The translations under genes and the position numbers were made by a program. A DNA stretch of 29,319 bases from a virus. The notes beneath the pieces were generated by a model that searched no databases, was not told the origin of the DNA, and worked only from the letters and a program-made list of their open reading frames with translations. This document shows, piece after piece, positions 1 through 29,319 of the stretch (the stretch's first letter is position 1; every line of letters begins with the position of its first letter). The DNA lies in IMG/VR virus record IMGVR_UViG_3300020436_000059, positions 1 through 29,319 of that record, one strand, 5' to 3'.

Positions 1-77
1 AACGCTGGTTTTATTTTATAGTTTCCAAAGCTTTTAGCATGCATCCATTTGCCATTATATAAATATTCTAAACCAGA
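1..77. repeat. Terminal direct repeat, copy 1 (identical to 29243..29319)
   Basis: The first 77 nt (aacgctggtt...taaaccaga) recur exactly as the last 77 nt of the window. This is typical of a circular contig closed by a k-mer overlap, or of a short terminal redundancy. The unique length is therefore 29242 bp. Confidence 0.95.
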
Positions 78-464
78 TGATTTAATATTTTGAATATATA
101 TCCAATTAGTAGCTTGATAAATAACTCCTGTATGTTCCTGTCCTTTATCTGCATAACTAACTAAAAGTTTTACTGTTGGATTATATTTTTTAAAAAGTTT
201 CATGCTCAATGCTAATGCCTTAGATGTTGATTCTTGTTTTCCATTTAATGCCATTCTAACTAATTCCATTGCTTGACCTTGCTTAAGTCCATACTTTGAA
301 GCAATATACGGATTAGCTCCTCTACCATAAACTATACATCCACACCATTCGTTTTTATCATTAAAAACAGAAAAACCCATTCCTGCTGCGGGTAAAGTTT
401 TAGCATAATGAAATTTTAAACAAGAATATTTAATCGCTTTTTTTGACGCTTTTTTTAAAATCAT
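1..464 (-). CDS. Mom-like (GNAT-fold) DNA-modification protein, N-terminal part of a gene that wraps the circular junction
   Basis: ATG at 464..462 overlaps the ParB-like stop (ATGA). Reading 464->1 gives MILKKASKKAIKYSCLKFHYAKTLPAAGMGFSVFNDKNEWCGCIVYGRGANPYIASKYG...LLVSYADKGQEHTGVIYQATNWIYIQNIK...NGKWMHAKSFGNYKIKPA with no stop. It joins in frame to 29242..29041, giving 221 aa in total. HYxxxxPAA, S(Y/F)ADxxxxHxGxIYQAxNW and K(F/H)(K/R)Y(L/V)Y resemble, from memory, the phage Mu Mom family. The ORF track misses it because it runs off the window edge. Confidence 0.6.
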   Translation of the reverse strand, partial: MILKKASKKAIKYSCLKFHYAKTLPAAGMGFSVFNDKNEWCGCIVYGRGANPYIASKYGLKQGQAMELVRMALNGKQESTSKALALSMKLFKKYNPTVKLLVSYADKGQEHTGVIYQATNWIYIQNIKSSGLEYLYNGKWMHAKSFGNYKIKPA

Positions 465-1003
465 ATTTCACCACCACTAACCGAATAACGGGATCCGGAA
501 TATTTTTTTATAATATGTTCAACATCTTGAATACATAAATCAAAATCATTTATATTTTGTAAAATAATTTTTATTTCAAGTGGCTTTTCTTTCAAAGATT
601 CTGTTAATTCCTCTAGCTCTGGTTGTTCTGATAAAGATAATTCTTCTTCAGAAAAACCCCAATTTTTAAGCTCATTTATTTCAAAATTATTAGCTAATTC
701 ATCCCAGTCCCATTGCCCTTGATTTTTATTTAACCTAATATTTAATTCTTTTTCTTCGTTAATGTCTAAATTAATTAAAGCACAGTGAACTTTTTCTAAA
801 CCTAAATCTTTTGCTATTCTAGCCCTTTGATGCCCACCTATTAAAACATTTTTTCTTTTTACATTTGAATTTACAATCAAGGGATCAACTAAACCAAATC
901 TTGATATAGAATCTCTTAAATCTTTATATTGTTCTTTTGTTAATTCCCTAGGGTTATATTCAGCGAATATTAAATCGTCTATATTTATTTCAACAACTTT
1001 CAT
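461..1003 (-). CDS. ParB-like nuclease-domain (ParB/Srx N-terminal domain) protein
   Basis: 180 aa. N-terminus MKVVEINIDDLIFAEYNPRELTKEQYKDLRDSISRFGLVDPLIVN...VLIGGHQRARIAKDLG matches the ParBc pattern (NPR..., GxVxPIxV, xGGHxR). There is no obvious C-terminal HTH. The stop overlaps the start of the Mom-like gene (ATGA). Confidence 0.75.
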   Translation of the reverse strand: MKVVEINIDDLIFAEYNPRELTKEQYKDLRDSISRFGLVDPLIVNSNVKRKNVLIGGHQRARIAKDLGLEKVHCALINLDINEEKELNIRLNKNQGQWDWDELANNFEINELKNWGFSEEELSLSEQPELEELTESLKEKPLEIKIILQNINDFDLCIQDVEHIIKKYSGSRYSVSGGEI

Positions 1004-1054: not shown

Positions 1055-1288
1055 CTAAATCCTTTTAAACCATTCTATTTCTTTTTGTTCAGGTGTAGTA
1101 TGTTCATTTAAACTTATTATATTAAATGGTTTGTCATAAACGTCATTTTTTTGTTCTGATGTATAATTTTCTAAATTTTCTGGAAATTTGCAATATATAT
1201 TATAAATTTTTTTTGCGGTAGTCCTGGAAACAAAAAAAGTGTCTTGTATTTCATTTACAGATAATGAGTTTATTTTTTTTGGATCCAT
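1055..1288 (-). CDS. Hypothetical small protein, possible HTH regulator; first gene of the long minus-strand arm
   Basis: 77-aa ORF starting at the divergent intergenic region. The segment SVNEIQDTFFVSRTTAKKIYNIY looks like a helix-turn-helix. Confidence 0.55.
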   Translation of the reverse strand: MDPKKINSLSVNEIQDTFFVSRTTAKKIYNIYCKFPENLENYTSEQKNDVYDKPFNIISLNEHTTPEQKEIEWFKRI

Positions 1289-4676: not shown

Positions 4677-5407
4677 TGGCGAAGAAATTTATTAGTTCAG
4701 ATATTTTCCAAAAACTATGGTTTCGCAGATTAGAACCAGAGATTAAGTTATTTTTTTTATATTTAATATCTACTTGCGATTTAGCAGGGTTTTTAGAATA
4801 TGACCCAGACAGAATAGAATTTGATTTAGGAATTAATTTTGACGTTAAAACTTTTTCAGATAAAATTAATGCTACTAAAAAAAATAGAATTGTCTGGGTA
4901 GATAATAAAACTAAAATATGGATTCCAGATTATGTGAAATTCCAATATAATGAATTATCTGAAAATTCAAAACCTCATTTAGCAGTTATTAAAAGACTAA
5001 AATCTTTAAATTGCTATACCCTATACAAAGGGTATGCAAACACTACTCGTAGTATTAAATATAAAGATAAAGATAAGTCTAAAGATACAGACATAGACAA
5101 ATACATTGCTAAGCCAAAAAATCATAAAATGGTTTTAGATGTTTTTAAAGAACTAAACATTTCGGATCCAGATGAAAATTCAAGAAAATTCTTTGACCAT
5201 TATGAAGCCAATGGTTGGTATAGGGGCAAAACTAAAATAAAAAATTGGAAAAGATGTATTTCTACTTGGAATTTTGAAAAAAATACAGCTACATCTAAAT
5301 ATAAATATACTTGTTTAGACCATCCAGAAATAGAAGTTTTTGCTGAAACAAGAGAATTAAAAACTAGTTGCCCTATATGTAATAATTACTTAAAATTAGT
5401 AAAATAG
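4676..5407 (+). CDS. Hypothetical protein, possible replication-organiser-like protein
   Basis: 243 aa with a TAATG overlap. The C-terminal FFDHYEANGWYRGKTKIKNWKRCISTW resembles the Y..nGW....i.dW motif seen in phage replication/DnaD-like proteins. There is a terminal Cx2C pair. The functional call is weak. Confidence 0.6.
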   Translation: MAKKFISSDIFQKLWFRRLEPEIKLFFLYLISTCDLAGFLEYDPDRIEFDLGINFDVKTFSDKINATKKNRIVWVDNKTKIWIPDYVKFQYNELSENSKPHLAVIKRLKSLNCYTLYKGYANTTRSIKYKDKDKSKDTDIDKYIAKPKNHKMVLDVFKELNISDPDENSRKFFDHYEANGWYRGKTKIKNWKRCISTWNFEKNTATSKYKYTCLDHPEIEVFAETRELKTSCPICNNYLKLVK

Positions 5408-5416
5408 GAGGAAAAA

Positions 5417-5686
5417 ATGGAAATTACTAGAAAAGAGCAAAGGCTGTTGACTTTTATTATTAATACGATTATATCATTAGCTAAACAATTCAGGCAAGAC
5501 GCTTTCGTACAAGAATGTCAACAATTGCTAGATAAAATAATAGAAGAAAATAAAAAAACAGCAAAAGAAAATAGGACTGGATTAGAAAAAGAACTTAGAC
5601 AAAGGGATTGGCCAAGGGTCGATTCAACACCTTTAGTTCCAGATTATAATAAAGTTGGTGAAGCATTTGACACAACAGACGACTGA
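5417..5686 (+). CDS. Hypothetical protein
   Basis: 89-aa ORF with AGGAGG 6-7 nt upstream of the ATG. Confidence 0.7.
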   Translation: MEITRKEQRLLTFIINTIISLAKQFRQDAFVQECQQLLDKIIEENKKTAKENRTGLEKELRQRDWPRVDSTPLVPDYNKVGEAFDTTDD

Positions 5687-5915
5687 ATCGACATTAAATT
5701 CTGTGGTAGCAGATTCAGATACTGACCCTATAAATCCTAATTATTATACAAGAGGAATAGAAACAACTAAATATATTTTAAGCCACAATTTAGGTTTTTG
5801 CGAAGGAAACATTATAAAATATATTACAAGGTTTAAAGATAAAAATGGAATTGAAGATTTGTTTAAAGCAAAAAAATACTTAGATTTGTTAATTGAGAAT
5901 TATAAAAAACTTTAA
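5655..5915 (+). CDS. DUF3310-like small phage protein (non-ATG start; start uncertain)
   Basis: NPNYYTRGIETTKYILSHNLGFCEGNIIKYITRFKDKNGIEDLFKAKKYLDLLIE matches the DUF3310 pattern (P.HY...ie....lgf..gNaiKYl.R...K....eDL.KA..Y). The codon at 5655 is TTG; GTG at 5658 and 5703 are alternatives. Confidence 0.6.
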   Translation: MVKHLTQQTTESTLNSVVADSDTDPINPNYYTRGIETTKYILSHNLGFCEGNIIKYITRFKDKNGIEDLFKAKKYLDLLIENYKKL

Positions 5916-5989: not shown

Positions 5990-6388
5990 ATGAAAAGAAA
6001 TAAATACGATAAAATATTTAGTGATATAATACGGACACGAGATAAATGGTGTTGTAAAAGATGTGGAAAAAATTATTATTTTAATAAAGGAGCATTACAA
6101 AATTCTCATTATTTTGGTAGGACACGTTATTCAGTAAGATTTGACGAAGATAATTGTGATGCTTTATGTTATGGTTGTCATAGATTTTGGGAAAAAGAAA
6201 ACAGAGAAGAATATAGAAATTATATGATAAAAAAAATTGGATCCAAAAAATTTGAATTGCTTACATATAAAGCACAATCATTAAGCAAAAAACGTGAATA
6301 TGAAAATGATATTTTTTATAAAGAAATGAAAAAAAGATTAAAAGAATTAGAAATAGAATTTGATTGTAGTGTAATTGATAATTTATAA
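5990..6388 (+). CDS. NinG-like recombination protein (Cys/His cluster)
   Basis: 132 aa. CCKRCGKNYYFNKGALQNSHYFGRTRYSVRFDEDNCDALCYGCHRFWE fits the lambda NinG family pattern (C..CG....lq.aH...r....lRfde.N...LC..CH). Confidence 0.6.
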   Translation: MKRNKYDKIFSDIIRTRDKWCCKRCGKNYYFNKGALQNSHYFGRTRYSVRFDEDNCDALCYGCHRFWEKENREEYRNYMIKKIGSKKFELLTYKAQSLSKKREYENDIFYKEMKKRLKELEIEFDCSVIDNL

Positions 6389-9907: not shown

Positions 9908-11418
9908 TAATAAGCACTCGCTTTACTAATTGCTGGAACTAAAGTATTTCTTACATAACTAGAGCTAATTAAACCGCCATTTATATTTACATTAACTTTT
10001 GGAGTCTTTCCTGTAAACCCTGATAATACAAAATTAAAAAAACCACCAGATGTTGCTTTTGTCGCAGCACTCGCTGCTGGACCTGCACCACCAGTAAGCA
10101 AACTTAATACGCTAAAAATCGCAGCTTTCGCAGCCATTTCCGCAGCGATAGAATTTATTGCAGATTTAACGACTTGTTCCATATTTTGTCCTTCAATCGC
10201 AGCCGTAGCTAATCTACCAGCAAAGCCTTCTGCTAAACCTATCATATTTCTAAAAGGCTCCTCTTGTGCTTCAAGCTCTGCAATCCTAGCATCCCTTCGT
10301 TTTTGAAACATATCAAGCTGTTTTAATAATCTTGCTTCTTCGTCTTTTTGCCTTTGTTCTTCGTCTTTTTTTCTTTTTTCTTCGTCAGCTTCAAATTGTT
10401 TTTGTAATTCAGCTTCTCTCCTTTTAAACTCATCATTGTCTTGTCTTTTAACGGAAGCAAGGTTTCTTTCAGCCTCAGTTATTCTCTCAATTATAATTAA
10501 TTCGTCTTTTCTTGTTTGTATTTGTTCTTCAAGTGATTTAACTAATCTATCAGTATCGTCTGCAGTCATCTCTAAAAATGATTTAGCAAGACCTTCTGTT
10601 TGTCCCATTGAAACTGCTAATATATTTCCTTTTAATTGTTCTAATTGACTAGAGAGACGATTTAAAGTTTCATCTTCTATGTCTCGCATATTATCATTAA
10701 AATTTGAAAAAAAATTATCAGCAGCGATAGCAGCATCAGTTAAAAATTCTGCTATGTCTTTTACTGCTGGAGCTAACATTGTTCCAAAAGATTCCGCAGC
10801 ATCAGAACTTGCTAAAAATAAGCCCTCCATAGTTCCTGCAAGTGTTTCTGTTTGTGCTTGCGCAGCCCCACCAAATAAATCTGCCATTACTTCAACGGCT
10901 TTACCGGCTTTCATTTCCTCTGCTGTTAATTCACGAAGTTGTGGAACTAATTCACCTAATTCTCCAGAAAGTCCAGAAAATGTTTTTGCAGTATTTCTTA
11001 CAGCACTTTCTAATGTCATTCCAGTAGCAGAAGCTAGATCCGCAGCCACAGGAATAATTGTTTTTATTTGCTCTTGTGTAAAATTTAATTCCGCTAAAAA
11101 TGCTTGTTGACTTATAATACTATCATCTGAAAAATTTGTAAGCCTTTGTAATTCAGACGATTGTTTTATAAGTGCTTGAGATGTAAAACCTAATGCTTGT
11201 GATAATTTCTTTTCTGCTAATTCTTGTTGCGCAGCTAATTGAACAGAAGTCGTTAATCCTTGTATAATTCCTCTAGCAGAAAAATATGCAGCGCCTGCTG
11301 TTAATGCAGTTCCAGCTAATTTTTTTAAAGAATTGTCAACTTTTTTAGTTCCTTTTTCAGCTTCATCTAATCCACTAACTCTAAATATATAATTTATTAT
11401 TTTATCGCCTATTGCCAT
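9907..11418 (-). CDS. Tail tape-measure protein
   Basis: 503 aa, Ala/Leu/Glu-rich. It has a long coiled-coil segment (RKDELIIIERITEAERNL...EEKRKKDEEQRQKDEEARLLKQL) and a Gly/Ala-rich hydrophobic C-terminus. It lies directly downstream of the frameshifted chaperone pair. Confidence 0.8.
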   Translation of the reverse strand: MAIGDKIINYIFRVSGLDEAEKGTKKVDNSLKKLAGTALTAGAAYFSARGIIQGLTTSVQLAAQQELAEKKLSQALGFTSQALIKQSSELQRLTNFSDDSIISQQAFLAELNFTQEQIKTIIPVAADLASATGMTLESAVRNTAKTFSGLSGELGELVPQLRELTAEEMKAGKAVEVMADLFGGAAQAQTETLAGTMEGLFLASSDAAESFGTMLAPAVKDIAEFLTDAAIAADNFFSNFNDNMRDIEDETLNRLSSQLEQLKGNILAVSMGQTEGLAKSFLEMTADDTDRLVKSLEEQIQTRKDELIIIERITEAERNLASVKRQDNDEFKRREAELQKQFEADEEKRKKDEEQRQKDEEARLLKQLDMFQKRRDARIAELEAQEEPFRNMIGLAEGFAGRLATAAIEGQNMEQVVKSAINSIAAEMAAKAAIFSVLSLLTGGAGPAASAATKATSGGFFNFVLSGFTGKTPKVNVNINGGLISSSYVRNTLVPAISKASAY

Positions 11419-27403: not shown

Positions 27404-28708
27404 CTACCATCTTTCAGTCTGTGTTACTTCCCGATTTTTTATAGGAAATTTATTTATAAAAAAATATCTGATAGCATCCATGCTATGGTCATGTAAACCA
27501 TCTTTTAATGGTTCTTCCTTTAAAGCACTATCAGCTTTGTCGTTAGGATACCTATAATTTTCAAAATCAGATATTACACCTTTACATTTATCTGATACAA
27601 AAAGTTTAACTTCGCTTGTAGCACTTTTTAAAAAACTTCTAACTAAGTCCACACCAGATGGAATAGATTTACTTATTTTATCTCTTTTGTATTTTGCAAA
27701 TATTCCATGTCTTTTAAATATTTCTGCATCGCCTAATCCACTTGTTGATTGCACTCCTACTCCTGCAGGGTCGCAATAGTAAGATAAAACAGGGTATTTT
27801 TTTTCTAATATTCTCATAGCTAAATCTTCGGTTTTAATATTTTTTTCATGTACTATTTCATCAAATATATGGACAATTGTTTCACCATTTACTTTTCCAC
27901 ATTGAAAAAAGACAACTGCTGGCATGCGATAGCCAAAGTCAATCGAGCAATATGTATCCCATTCTGGAATATATTCGATATTAGAAACATGGGTAGTCCG
28001 TTCAAATGGATACACTTTACCAGCAAAAGTTGTAAATTCTCCAAGATATTCTTGTTGAAATGTTTCAAGCGTTAAATCCCTTTTTAAGTCCTCAATATTG
28101 TCTTTAAAAAATCTTGACTGTGTAGATGGGTGTTGCCAACTTTCCCAGTCTGGAAACTCATTAGACAATCCTCTTTTATATAATTCATATAACCAGTTAT
28201 ATCCTCTAGGAGTAGATGTAAATAAAGCCCAACCATTCCTATCCGATAAAGTAGGTCGCAAATATTGTTCCCATATAATTTTTTGTAATAATGCTGCTTC
28301 ATCTACTATTAACCAGTCTAATCCTTCTCCTACAAGTCCAGCATCTGGAGTTGTTGCTGATTTAATCCACAATTCGGATCCATTAATAAATTTTGCATAA
28401 AATAAATTACCATTAATTACTCTTTTATTTATGGTAGGAAATTTAATCTTTAATATAAGATTTTCATGAATTTCCCTACCAATTTTTGTAGCTAAGTCAT
28501 AACTAGGAGCAACAACCCAGCCTTTAGTATTTTCTTGTAATATTGCTGTTTCTGCTTCTCTTGCTGCGCTATAACTTTTACCACTTCTTCTACCTTGTAT
28601 ATTTACTCTAAACCTAGCATCGGAATTGTGCAAGTCCCATTGTATTTTATCTGGCACATATTCAATCTCTTTGAAATAATTAGCTTTCTGTTGGGCTGTA
28701 AATCGCAT
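27404..28708 (-). CDS. terL: Terminase large subunit
   Basis: 434 aa. Walker A-like QGRRSGKS near the N-terminus, Walker B-like LDWLIVDEAA, and a C-terminal nuclease-type acidic motif (HDHSMDAIRY). Confidence 0.85.
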   Translation of the reverse strand: MRFTAQQKANYFKEIEYVPDKIQWDLHNSDARFRVNIQGRRSGKSYSAAREAETAILQENTKGWVVAPSYDLATKIGREIHENLILKIKFPTINKRVINGNLFYAKFINGSELWIKSATTPDAGLVGEGLDWLIVDEAALLQKIIWEQYLRPTLSDRNGWALFTSTPRGYNWLYELYKRGLSNEFPDWESWQHPSTQSRFFKDNIEDLKRDLTLETFQQEYLGEFTTFAGKVYPFERTTHVSNIEYIPEWDTYCSIDFGYRMPAVVFFQCGKVNGETIVHIFDEIVHEKNIKTEDLAMRILEKKYPVLSYYCDPAGVGVQSTSGLGDAEIFKRHGIFAKYKRDKISKSIPSGVDLVRSFLKSATSEVKLFVSDKCKGVISDFENYRYPNDKADSALKEEPLKDGLHDHSMDAIRYFFINKFPIKNREVTQTERW

Positions 28709-29048
28709 GAATTACATCTTCCCATTTCTCGCCAACTTGTGCTATTACTTCTGTTGCTTTTCCTTCTAATCTGTTAGCAACAAAATCTATTGCCCACGGC
28801 TTTCCTTGTATCGCATACATAATAGTCGTTCTTAGTATGCCTTCAAGTAAGTTCATATCAGTTAAGTCAATTTCTGGATAAACCTTTTTAATTCTTTTTT
28901 GTAGTTCTTTAGGCACAGGTTCATTTGTTATTTTCCTTAATAAGTCTGGTATGGATCCGGCTCCCTTAGGCCTTCCTTTTGGATTCCCACTTACACCTTG
29001 TTTAAAAGTGCCATCATTATTCCTGTTATTACCTGTTTTATCAGGCAT
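28680..29048 (-). CDS. terS: Terminase small subunit-like protein (DUF5681-type; ORF track start 29114)
   Basis: MPDKTGNNRNNDGTFKQGVSGNPKGRPKGAGSIPD carries the GxSGNPxGRPKG motif common in small-terminase-like proteins. ATG at 29048 overlaps the Mom-like stop by 8 nt. The longer 29114 start would run through the tRNA-like element. Confidence 0.65.
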   Translation of the reverse strand: MPDKTGNNRNNDGTFKQGVSGNPKGRPKGAGSIPDLLRKITNEPVPKELQKRIKKVYPEIDLTDMNLLEGILRTTIMYAIQGKPWAIDFVANRLEGKATEVIAQVGEKWEDVIHAIYSPTES

Positions 29049-29319
29049 AATTATTGAGCGATTCACTAGGTATCGAACCTGTACTTTTATCATGGACTGA
29101 TAACGTGCTTCCATTTACACTAGAATCGCATACTTTAGGATAAGTTAATTTTTGTTTATTTAATTTTTGTCTTAATGTTTTATCAAAAGCATACAAGTAT
29201 TTAAATTTTCCTGATTTTTTTCTTCTTTGAATATTTTGTTTGAACGCTGGTTTTATTTTATAGTTTCCAAAGCTTTTAGCATGCATCCATTTGCCATTAT
29301 ATAAATATTCTAAACCAGA
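29041..29319 (-). CDS. Mom-like DNA-modification protein, C-terminal part (continuation of 464..1; 29243..29319 duplicates 1..77)
   Basis: The frame is open from the window end down to TGA at 29043..29041 (...MHAKSFGNYKIKPAFKQNIQRRKKSGKFKYLYAFDKTLRQKLNKQKLTYPK...). The listed 81-aa ORF 29041..29286 is only the tail of this gene. The last ~30 codons are Ser-rich, low-complexity, and overlap the tRNA-like element. Confidence 0.6.
   Translation of the reverse strand, partial: SGLEYLYNGKWMHAKSFGNYKIKPAFKQNIQRRKKSGKFKYLYAFDKTLRQKLNKQKLTYPKVCDSSVNGSTLSVHDKSTGSIPSESLNNYA
29057..29129 (-). tRNA. tRNA-like element (possibly a degenerate tRNA-Gly, anticodon UCC)
   Basis: The minus strand reads GCGATTC-TA-GTGT-AAATGGAA-GCAC-G-TTATC-AGTCCAT-GATAA-AAGT-ACAGG-TTCGATA-CCTAG-T-GAATCGC-T. 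It has a 7-bp acceptor stem, a 4-bp D stem with A14/G18G19/A21, a 5-bp anticodon stem and a T-loop TTCGATA with G53/C61 and U8. Defects are G instead of U at position 33, only 3 of 5 T-stem pairs, and one extra nt before the acceptor 3' strand. It lies inside the 3' end of the Mom-like ORF. Confidence 0.35.
29243..29319. repeat. Terminal direct repeat, copy 2 (identical to 1..77)
   Basis: Exact 77-nt match to the window start, compared base by base. Confidence 0.95.

Follow-up and report, generated by a model that had tools for sequence, protein, structure and literature searches.

The 29,319-nt stretch of DNA analysed here (the window; IMG/VR virus record IMGVR_UViG_3300020436_000059, positions 1 to 29,319) is from a small marine phage that carries, just upstream of its terminase genes and on the minus strand, a ParB-like gene, a gene for a Mom-family enzyme and, within the Mom reading frame, a gene for tRNA-Gly. 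A terminal direct repeat with no strand assigned (1..77) is an exact, 77-nt copy of 29243..29319, and this end match is taken as an assembly overlap, making the true unit a circle of 29,242 bp, with a G+C content of 31%. Profile-library scans covered the ParB-to-terL block and ten open-reading frames (ORFs) of the early region, while most of the other ~50 ORFs fall outside that range.

The block is headed by orf77 (1055..1288, minus), a small conserved ORF of 77 amino acids (aa) directly upstream of the ParB-like gene, for which no Pfam or PHROG family was matched and which has homologues at the equivalent position in the sister phages L059, L061, and L065-L067. The ParB-like gene (461..1003, minus; 180 aa; Pfam PF02195, PHROG 498/620) is followed by the Mom gene, which starts at 464 and wraps the circular junction, so that its N-terminal 154 codons occupy 1..464 (minus; assigned by translation and Pfam PF25680) and the C-terminal part of its catalytic domain, ending ...KLTYPKV at residue 192, occupies 29130..29242 (minus). 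The same frame continues through the 74-nt tRNA-Gly gene (anticodon UCC; 29056..29129, minus; detected by ARAGORN and by a covariance model), which corresponds to codons 193-217, and through a spacer from the tRNA 3′ end to terS (29041..29055, minus) that holds the last four codons and the TGA. The whole wrapped ORF (464..1 plus 29242..29041) is 221 aa long and contains HYAKTLPAAG, SYADKGQEHTGVIYQATNW, and KFKYLY. Downstream lie the terS candidate (28680..29048, minus; 122 aa, starting MPDKTG), identified by its match to Pfam DUF5681 (E = 3e-12) and its position directly before TerL, and terL (27404..28708, minus; 434 aa; Pfam Terminase_6N, E = 4.7e-13; PHROG 2), whose C-terminal RNaseH-like domain gave only matches below the cut-off (Terminase_3C, 25.3 bits vs 26.7; Terminase_6C, 14.6 vs 22.6). 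Support for the short terS start comes from relatives and from near-identical Tara Oceans contigs, in which independent gene calling also gave 122 aa.

These genes overlap in series. On the minus strand, the ParB/Mom junction reads ...GGTGGTGAAATATGA, in which the stop codon of ParB (TGA) shares bases with the start codon of Mom in the string ATGA. The final codons of ParB also contain GGTGGTGA, which resembles a Shine-Dalgarno sequence. The TGA of the wrapped ORF overlaps the terS ATG (29048) by 8 nt (ATGCCTGA), and the end of terS at 28680 and the start of terL at 28708 give a further overlap of 29 nt. Every literal statement of an earlier, sequence-only reading of this DNA regarding the serial overlaps and the circular wrap was confirmed from the sequence. 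The overlap between Mom and terS arises because the ORF runs through the tRNA gene and does not reflect two protein domains abutting one another.

The wrapped reading frame encodes a Mom-family protein

The sequence-only reading had assigned the wrapped ORF, from its motifs, to the family of the phage Mu Mom protein, and this assignment is borne out by profile, fold, and functional residues. Against Pfam PF25680 (Mom), the ORF scored 125.1 bits (cut-off 27.1; E = 3.7e-36), with residues 3-191 aligned to profile positions 4-202 of 202, and it matched PHROG 1384, "Mom-like DNA modification protein", at 1.4e-43. A sequence search of the PDB returned a sole match, 8BV8, the crystal structure of Mu Mom. 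The best Foldseek match of an AlphaFold (AF2) model, built on 46 homologues with a predicted local distance difference test score (pLDDT) of 81.5, was likewise 8BV8_A (E = 1.2e-11, TM 0.68, 204 columns), whereas ordinary GNATs matched at about 1e-4 to 2e-4, seven orders of magnitude worse. The Mom domain ends at ...TYPK (about 29130), and residues 193-221 of the 221-aa ORF were modeled with a pLDDT below 50. At the place corresponding to the helix-turn-helix (HTH)-like insertion that Mu Mom needs for its activity (Mu 175-209), a beta-hairpin and two short helices (residues 132-158) are predicted in a lower-confidence part of the model (pLDDT about 71).

Mutagenesis of Mu Mom has identified H58, Y59, R111, S124, D149, Y159, and W181 (241-aa numbering) as functional residues (PMC7261163, PMC13219725). 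These correspond to H19, Y20, R70, S81, D106, Y116, and W140 of the window protein, the first six of which are invariant in the 46 homologues and the last nearly so (at least 90% of rows), at an overall identity to Mu Mom of 26%. The chemistry that the sequence-only reading gave for Mom is outdated. Mu Mom does not use an acetyl-CoA-type route; Gly-tRNAGly is its glycine donor, the acceptor is N6 of adenines in double-stranded DNA, and the adduct then rearranges to N6-carbamoylmethyl-dA (PMC13219725), a nucleoside of 308 u.

With the window Mom protein as query, 53 loci with proteins 44-62% identical to it were found in viral contigs, and a further 80 prophage loci from many phyla were collected. 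An alignment that included Mu Mom and the L061 protein (A1) was too divergent for the locus search and a second alignment (A2) was used instead; with Mu Mom as query, the viral-contig scan returned Mu prophages only. Two Mom paralogues occur in L043 (312..1534), L044 (1991..3213), and L028 (2058..2675 and 4750..5421). In L043 and L044, the Mom copies stand in tandem, with a convergent tRNA-Gly after the second.

A tRNA-Gly gene lies at the 3′ end of the Mom domain

The tRNA-Gly at 29056..29129, for which ARAGORN drew a cloverleaf, is the only tRNA in the genome, and it starts with base two of codon 193, at the very point where the Mom domain stops. It has the acceptor stem GCGAUUC/GAAUCGC, the discriminator U73, and C35 and C36 in its anticodon. 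Over a segment of ~85 nt, the window, L061, and L134 are about 90% identical and show a compensatory change within the stem of the anticodon arm, and the flanks diverge; the tail of the ORF (the last 29 residues) is also found on the unrelated Mom of L061.

A covariance model was built from a MAFFT alignment of 21 copies, which RNAalifold folded into a cloverleaf with compensatory changes in 15 of 19 pairs; many of the later matches lay outside this training set. The window copy scores 67 bits with this family model. The element is present at the 3′ end of Mom in 52 of the 53 viral (IMG/VR) loci, at 62-76 bits, and at the same position in L061, L134, and L135, as well as in about 25 of the 80 prophage loci. 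Two cultured phages carry it: in Salinibacter phage B2_17, it lies at the Mom 3′ end and is annotated as tRNA-Gly, and in Arthrobacter phage Shade, it is unannotated (L002 4580..4651, NC_042015 about 46,210..46,281; 57.6 bits) and overlaps the end of the Mom-like gp71, a small ORF standing between the ParB gp69 and Mom. The covariance model did not find it next to Mom in Mu, in phiEf11, or in the prophages of Firmicutes and Enterobacterales. ARAGORN also called a tRNA-Gly at the Mom 3′ end in many relatives, and in eight loci, the Mom-linked tRNA is on the opposite strand, indicating that it is a gene and not a motif of the mRNA. A control scan with ARAGORN of 72 TerL relatives (638 kb in total) found one tRNA, the tRNA-Gly beside the sole Mom in that set.

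The identity elements recognized by bacterial glycyl-tRNA synthetase (GlyRS) are listed in PMC7826273, and the set (G1:C72, C2:G71, G3:C70, U73, C35, C36) is complete in 51 of 55 unique copies, including that of the window. Features associated with decoding are kept less well. Of the 55 copies, 17 have the canonical anticodon loop (7 nt, U33, purine 37), 16 have 8-nt anticodon loops, and position 34 is U in 41, A in 11, C in two, and G in one; G55 replaces U55 in 13 copies, always together with A18 in place of G18, leaving 12 copies that are canonical all round. GlyRS identity kept while decoding features degenerate points to selection for glycylation and not for decoding; the needs of glycylation and of the L-shape appear to have been kept, and those of decoding relaxed. 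Since Mu Mom uses Gly-tRNAGly, the phage tRNA-Gly is probably a dedicated glycyl donor for Mom. Neither tRNA genes beside mom homologues nor ParB are mentioned in the main text of PMC13219725.

Examples of the element in the tRNA alignment (A6) are L005 1084..1156, L007 9406..9478, L029 4257..4329, and L219 4599..4672. The pairing of A18 with G55 resembles covariation of the tertiary elbow contact, and eleven copies carry the unnatural anticodon ACC. The relation of the Mom stop codon to the tRNA also varies. In three divergent phages, the window (29041..29129, minus), L061 (1799..1887), and L134 (10587..10675), the Mom ORF reads across the entire tRNA and ends 8 nt within terS, for which a Shine-Dalgarno sequence is not obvious. 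Most other relatives have the Mom stop ~15 nt into the tRNA, so that excision of the tRNA would remove the mom stop and leave a non-stop mRNA. Translation through the tRNA region could couple that of terS, and this may be a switch between the two fates of the transcript.

The ParB-like partner of Mom and its slot in related phages

The upstream gene had been described as ParB-like, and it does contain a ParB/Srx N-domain, as indicated by its match to Pfam PF02195 (ParB N-terminal domain; 43.1 bits, cut-off 26.3), by PDB sequence matches to the N-domains of ParB/Spo0J/Noc, and by its predicted structure (AF2, pLDDT 82), for which the top Foldseek matches were CTP- or CDP-bound ParB, Noc, and KorB (among them 7BNR, 6SDK, and 7BM8) with E-values from about 3e-7 to 1e-5 over about 105-135 residues. 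The nucleotide-binding N-domain of the ParB/Srx type takes up about residues 1-125 of the protein and is joined by an acidic linker to a C-terminal module of ~45 aa and of the "...YSVSGGEI" type. The motifs YNPR, GGHQR, and RLNKN are invariant in its family. GGHQR replaces the GERR of GERRxR, the motif with which partition ParB proteins bind and hydrolyze CTP (E to H, first R to Q), the QPR of box I becomes YNPR, and the Asn of ENLQR is kept as N94; phosphate-binding Arg residues are retained and hydrolysis residues altered. An HTH DNA-binding domain was not found, only the N-terminal 105-135 or so residues aligning to ParB structures, and parA was not found among the profile-scanned ORFs. The predicted fold is that of ParB, but on these features the protein does not belong to the partition ParB proteins.

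The ParB partners of Mom in phiEf11 (L001), Shade (L002), and Salinibacter phage B2_17 (L003) end in a zinc-ribbon-like CPxCG motif, which the window ParB does not have and which recalls the zinc-finger Com of Mu. The com gene of Mu lies just upstream of mom and overlaps it.

In 52 of the 53 viral loci, a ParB homologue stands directly upstream of Mom, nearly always with a 4-nt overlap, and the 53rd locus is cut off; in prophages, ParB adjoins Mom in 52 of 74 evaluable loci. The cultured phages that carry the ParB-Mom pair include Enterococcus phage phiEf11 and Arthrobacter phage Shade. This recurrence in viral and prophage loci supports the earlier view of the two genes as a translationally coupled, conserved pair. 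A small ORF and then the large terminase follow the cassette immediately in all ten viral relatives sampled, and the terminase Pfam family of these relatives differs from that of the window.

The closest relatives of the phage as a whole, with TerL proteins 65-71% identical, vary in the slot between the orf77 homologue and terS. In L061, ParB is accompanied by a Mom of another, Mu-like kind; in L065, L066, and L067, ParB is fused to an N6/N4-methyltransferase; L058 has such a fusion together with a C5-methyltransferase; in L059, the fusion has decayed, with the ParB-methyltransferase collapsed to 80 aa; and L062 and L064 have neither ParB-Mom nor the fusion. These fusions agree with the earlier statement that phage DNA-modifying enzymes frequently come with a ParB domain, either as a separate partner or in fusion. 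The end of ParB differs between these arrangements. In the loci with a Mom of the window type (L005-L057), ParB has a related "...YSVS..." tail, mostly ...YSVSAGEL or ...YSVSSEK (L015 is cut off upstream, its ParB end falling outside the comparison). The ParB of L061, beside its Mu-like Mom, ends "...NGNALWWIC", and in the fusions, the methyltransferase replaces the module. The C-terminal module of ParB thus co-varies with the type of Mom or other partner.

Every cassette junction in the sister phages has the 8-nt ATGCCTGA overlap. The C5-methyltransferase-like gene of L058 (1310..1993) and L059 (7425..8108) opens with MPDKTGENRRN, which duplicates the start of terS. The shared junction and the duplicated terS start suggest that cassettes are exchanged by recombination at the start of terS. 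Further along the block, two ORFs that overlap or adjoin make up the large terminase in L075, L118-L124, L127, and L129, at least nine related contigs from different samples (e.g., L118 9980..10369 and 10356..11324), and also in L130 (5160..6477), a near-identical strain of the window phage. A recurrent frameshift or a divided gene, and not a random assembly error, could lie behind this.

A proposed adenine-hypermodification cassette

Given the linkage of these three components, we favor, with moderate confidence, the reading that the ParB-like gene, Mom, and tRNA-Gly form a three-part adenine-hypermodification cassette in the ParB-Tls slot that heads the packaging and structural operon, a reading drawn from sequence and from analogy with characterized systems. 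According to this proposal, orf77, ParB-like, Mom, tRNA-Gly, terS, and terL would be co-transcribed from the minus strand, as gene order and overlaps suggest, and translation of Mom would be coupled to that of ParB through the ATGA and the embedded Shine-Dalgarno sequence, an arrangement conserved in relatives. The tRNA would then be cut out of the transcript, and the host GlyRS, all of whose known identity elements it retains, would attach glycine to it. By homology with Mu, the GNAT-fold Mom would move the glycyl group from Gly-tRNAGly to adenine N6 in double-stranded phage DNA, and the adduct would rearrange to N6-carbamoylmethyl-adenine, as in the experimentally established Mu reaction. 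The phage tRNA would serve mainly as a dedicated glycine donor and not in decoding, in keeping with its strict linkage to Mom and its degenerate decoding features. The ParB-like protein may be a nucleotide-dependent partner that activates or targets Mom, as the analogy with dioxygenase activators, the methyltransferase fusions, and the co-variation of its C-terminal module suggest. The modified DNA would then be packaged, protected from restriction.

Several observations weigh against this proposal. The scan for promoter and terminator consensus sequences gave counts at shuffle level in this AT-rich DNA and was uninformative, and we therefore only infer the operon structure. The anticodon loop of the window tRNA, AGUCCAU, has G33 in place of U33, and the Rfam tRNA model gave the window copy 23 bits (E = 0.018), missing the gathering score of 29, which 4 of 12 relatives' copies pass. 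GGA is the commonest Gly codon of the phage (273 of 619), so a tRNA with the anticodon UCC could simply aid translation. Mu Mom is active alone with host tRNAs, as are two random metagenomic homologues in E. coli (PMC13219725), which argues that neither ParB nor a phage tRNA is generally required. Two residues of Mu Mom are not conserved, R151 (essential), which is G108 in the window protein, and W48 (dimerization), which is Lys or Ala, and the donor, base, or context may differ from those of Mu Mom. GGHQR in place of GERR makes CTP binding or hydrolysis by the ParB-like protein uncertain.

The first alternative concerns the tRNA, which might be an ordinary tRNA supplementing translation of GGA and GGG codons, or a hitchhiking or attP-type remnant, with its position beside Mom meaningless. 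Phage tRNAs are commonly explained by codon usage, and besides the prevalence of GGA, such an origin would suit the fully canonical minority of copies and the ability of Mu Mom to work with no phage tRNA. Set against this, the tRNA is the only one in the genome and is always tRNA-Gly, and it stands at the Mom 3′ end in at least 75 loci from many phyla and in both orientations, whereas none of the 71 Mom-less relatives in the ARAGORN control has the element. Most copies are degenerate for decoding (non-U33, 8-nt loops, ACC), while GlyRS identity is nearly invariant. An attP remnant fits poorly with a tRNA that is full length and internal to prophages, by the terminase and not at the prophage ends. 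A role in translation or a chance position is thus an unlikely explanation of the tRNA-Gly.

A second alternative is that the ParB-like protein is an accessory or nuclease of packaging on the terminase side, acting in pac recognition or cleavage or in degradation of host DNA, and that modifying genes merely lodge nearby. ParB does stay by terS and terL whatever modifying enzyme accompanies it, PHROG annotations of its matches include "nuclease", and the locus is itself defined by ParB and TerL. However, ParB is fused to methyltransferases in the sister phages and in many homologues, its C-terminal module changes with the type of partner, the 4-nt overlap with Mom is kept across phyla, and in Arthrobacter phage Shade, for example, the ParB-Mom pair is not next to the terminase. 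There is also an experimental precedent for ParB-dependent activation of a phage DNA-modifying enzyme (10.1101/2025.08.14.668559). We judge that the ParB-like protein is probably not a packaging factor of this kind.

A third alternative is that the homologue departs from Mu Mom in the reaction that it catalyzes, whether in the acyl donor, the base, or the product. This would account for the loss of R151 and W48, the low identity to Mu Mom, and the motif that the clade has of its own in the R151 region, AD-x-x-Q-x-H-x-G (or AD-K-G-Q-x-H-x-G), in which Q109 and H111 are invariant. R151 is also not conserved in phiEf11, Shade, and L061, which indicates that it is specific to Mu and does not define the family, and the protein keeps the fold together with seven further functional residues. 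In every case, the neighboring tRNA is a tRNA-Gly with GlyRS identity, matching the donor of Mu Mom, and the Mu assay is reported to have detected activity for two metagenomic homologues picked at random (PMC13219725). A different reaction therefore seems quite improbable.

GGATCC enrichment does not track the cassette

The genome contains 30 GGATCC sites, compared to 2.0 expected from composition and 3.3 from an order-2 Markov model (p about 7e-19), an enrichment of about 10-15-fold. The sites are spread at ~1 per kilobase through coding regions (491, 1281, 2348, 2612, 3480, 4344, 5164, 6239, 7158, 7581, 7778, 9141, 9773, 12130, 12560, 14154, 14907, 16085, 16556, 18134, 19633, 20863, 21787, 22837, 23195, 25523, 26123, 26969, 28376, and 28953). 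Gly-Ser dipeptides are encoded GGA-TCC in 19 of 64 cases vs 1.2 expected, and more than half of all TCC codons sit in GGATCC sites; this synonymous codon choice shows selection at the level of DNA. GATC is otherwise scarce, with 36 sites in total, of which six lie outside GGATCC vs about 80 expected, and AGATCT is absent (9.8 expected).

The sequence-only reading had raised the possibility that the ParB-Mom module acts on these sites, and a modification specific to the adenine of GGATCC would be a new specificity compared to the S-A-S context of Mu Mom. In its favor are the strong selection at the DNA level and the near-elimination of GATC elsewhere, which suggests restriction pressure on GATC and retained sites in need of protection. 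Mom is also the sole DNA-modifying enzyme among the profile-scanned ORFs, no methyltransferase having been found among the ten early-region genes scanned against PHROGs, and the dimer of Mu Mom would suit a palindrome (PMC13219725). The comparative evidence does not support the link. The enrichment is confined to one species and its 97-98% identical strains, in which 18 of 22 aligned sites are intact, and with composition controlled by the order-2 Markov model, no palindrome, GGATCC or other, is significantly enriched in about 60 relatives of at least 8 kb. GGATCC is absent from the loci with the closest Mom (L013, L015), the closest ParB (L052, L006, L027), and the same tRNA type (L134, L061), so that the enrichment does not track ParB, Mom, or tRNA. 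The A of GGATCC also lies outside the Mu context, and enrichment of a modification target would need a benefit that is not evident. We consider GGATCC a very unlikely target of the module and treat its enrichment as a separate feature, to which the comparative evidence does not connect the cassette. Still more improbable is a self-contained scheme in which a nucleotide-dependent ParB clamp, loaded on phage DNA and possibly at the 30 GGATCC sites, would confine Mom to the phage genome during packaging and, with a tRNAGly that has lost decoding as donor, would give a site-directed and self-restricted pattern outside S-A-S.

GATC is wholly missing in many Mom-bearing relatives (e.g., L007, L008, L017, L045, L047, L048); in the sister phages L065-L067, which have the ParB-methyltransferase fusions, and in L061, it has about twice the expected number. 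Other candidate signals were rejected. An apparent enrichment of TTGCAA, AAGCTT, CAATTG, AGATCT, and CAGCTG in Mom-bearing relatives was compositional and vanished under the order-2 Markov model, and the levels of these palindromes do not differ between loci with and without Mom. It was also considered whether Mom is directed to GGA/TCC by the anticodon of the tRNA, with GGATCC as codon plus anticodon, but this was dropped, as loci with UCC, ACC, CCC, and GCC anticodons have no matching palindrome enrichment; that every Mu tRNAGly isoacceptor supports momylation (PMC13219725) also counts against it. The frame bias of GGATCC (19 of 28 in frame as GGA-TCC) as a protein-level signal reflects opportunity, Gly-Ser being far commoner than the alternatives, and the GGATCC sites of L070, considered as junction repeats, are in mixed frames and too few to interpret. 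The early region itself encodes a NinG/Rap-like junction endonuclease (5990..6388, plus; PHROG 5034, 1.7e-24) and an 86-aa protein (5655..5915, plus) that matches only the C-terminal part of phage "nucleotide kinase" families.

Implications of a Mom-linked tRNA

The dependence of Mom on Gly-tRNAGly is a recent finding, established for phage Mu only (PMC13219725), and a tRNA-Gly tied to distant Mom homologues across phyla is independent genomic evidence that tRNA-dependent chemistry extends to the whole family. A further suggestion is that some phage-encoded tRNAs have a non-translational role, for which the only well-studied parallel is the staphylococcal cell-wall tRNAGly. If true, this would change how single "orphan" phage tRNAs are read and annotated; here, the tRNA is hidden in a protein ORF. 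The near-obligatory ParB partner makes the idea of ParB as an activator testable in a second enzyme class, the idea having so far been demonstrated for thymine dioxygenases only, and the cultured carriers (Arthrobacter phage Shade and its relatives, and Salinibacter phage B2_17) make experiments feasible. The suggestion of the sequence-only reading that modification is coupled to packaging is reasonable but already published as the ParB-Tls locus hypothesis. The type of locus is thus already known, and the Mom-linked tRNA-Gly is its new element.

Comparison with known systems

The closest characterized enzyme is Mu Mom (8BV8; PMC13219725, PMC7261163), which has in common with the window protein its Pfam family, a GNAT fold with a candidate insertion, and the H/Y/R/S/D/Y/W residues. 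The place of the window Mom among packaging and structural genes suggests late expression, as for mom of Mu, and Gly-tRNAGly is the donor in Mu and the presumed donor here. The two differ in their upstream partner, which is ParB-like in the window and the zinc-finger translational activator Com in Mu, and in the source of the tRNA, the window carrying its own tRNA-Gly gene whereas Mu uses host tRNAs. They differ also in position, with the window gene upstream of the terminase and mom at the genome end of Mu, and in sequence, the window protein being 26% identical and lacking the counterparts of R151 (essential) and W48 (dimer).

The ParB-Tls locus (Iyer et al. 2013, as cited in PMC4738411 and PMC6536676) was described as DNA-modifying genes lying between ParB-like and large terminase genes, with the proposal that ParB directs the modification apparatus during packaging. 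The order ParB, Mom, tRNA, terS, terL in the window fits this definition, as does the occurrence of ParB either free or fused to a methyltransferase, the sister phages having the fusion and an extra m5C methyltransferase. The window differs in its cargo, which is Mom with a tRNA gene; PMC4738411 and PMC6536676 mention no tRNA as part of the locus.

Phage ParB-like proteins without a DNA-binding domain have been reported as required activators of the clade E 5mYOX thymine dioxygenases (preprint 10.1101/2025.08.14.668559). As in that system, the window has a small PF02195 protein without a DNA-binding domain beside a post-replicative modifying enzyme, and terminases are frequent neighbors. The partner enzyme is different, an Fe/2-oxoglutarate dioxygenase in the one case and a GNAT aminoacyl-transferase in the other, the ParB motif of the window is GGHQR, and the partnership of ParB with Mom is a predicted one.

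The nearest parallel for the tRNA is the staphylococcal non-proteogenic tRNAGly(UCC), which is without G18/G19, binds EF-Tu poorly, escapes translation, and donates glycine to the GNAT-fold Fem transferases (PMC7826273, PMC4574755). Both kinds of tRNA have the anticodon UCC, keep GlyRS identity, and show changes in the elbow, and the phage tRNA would likewise donate glycine to a GNAT-fold transferase outside the ribosome. However, the staphylococcal tRNA is cellular and serves peptidoglycan synthesis, whereas the window tRNA is phage-encoded and its acceptor would be DNA. The changes in the phage family fall mostly in the anticodon loop (non-U33, 8-nt loops), together with A18/G55, and suggest that these tRNAs would be of poor use in translation.

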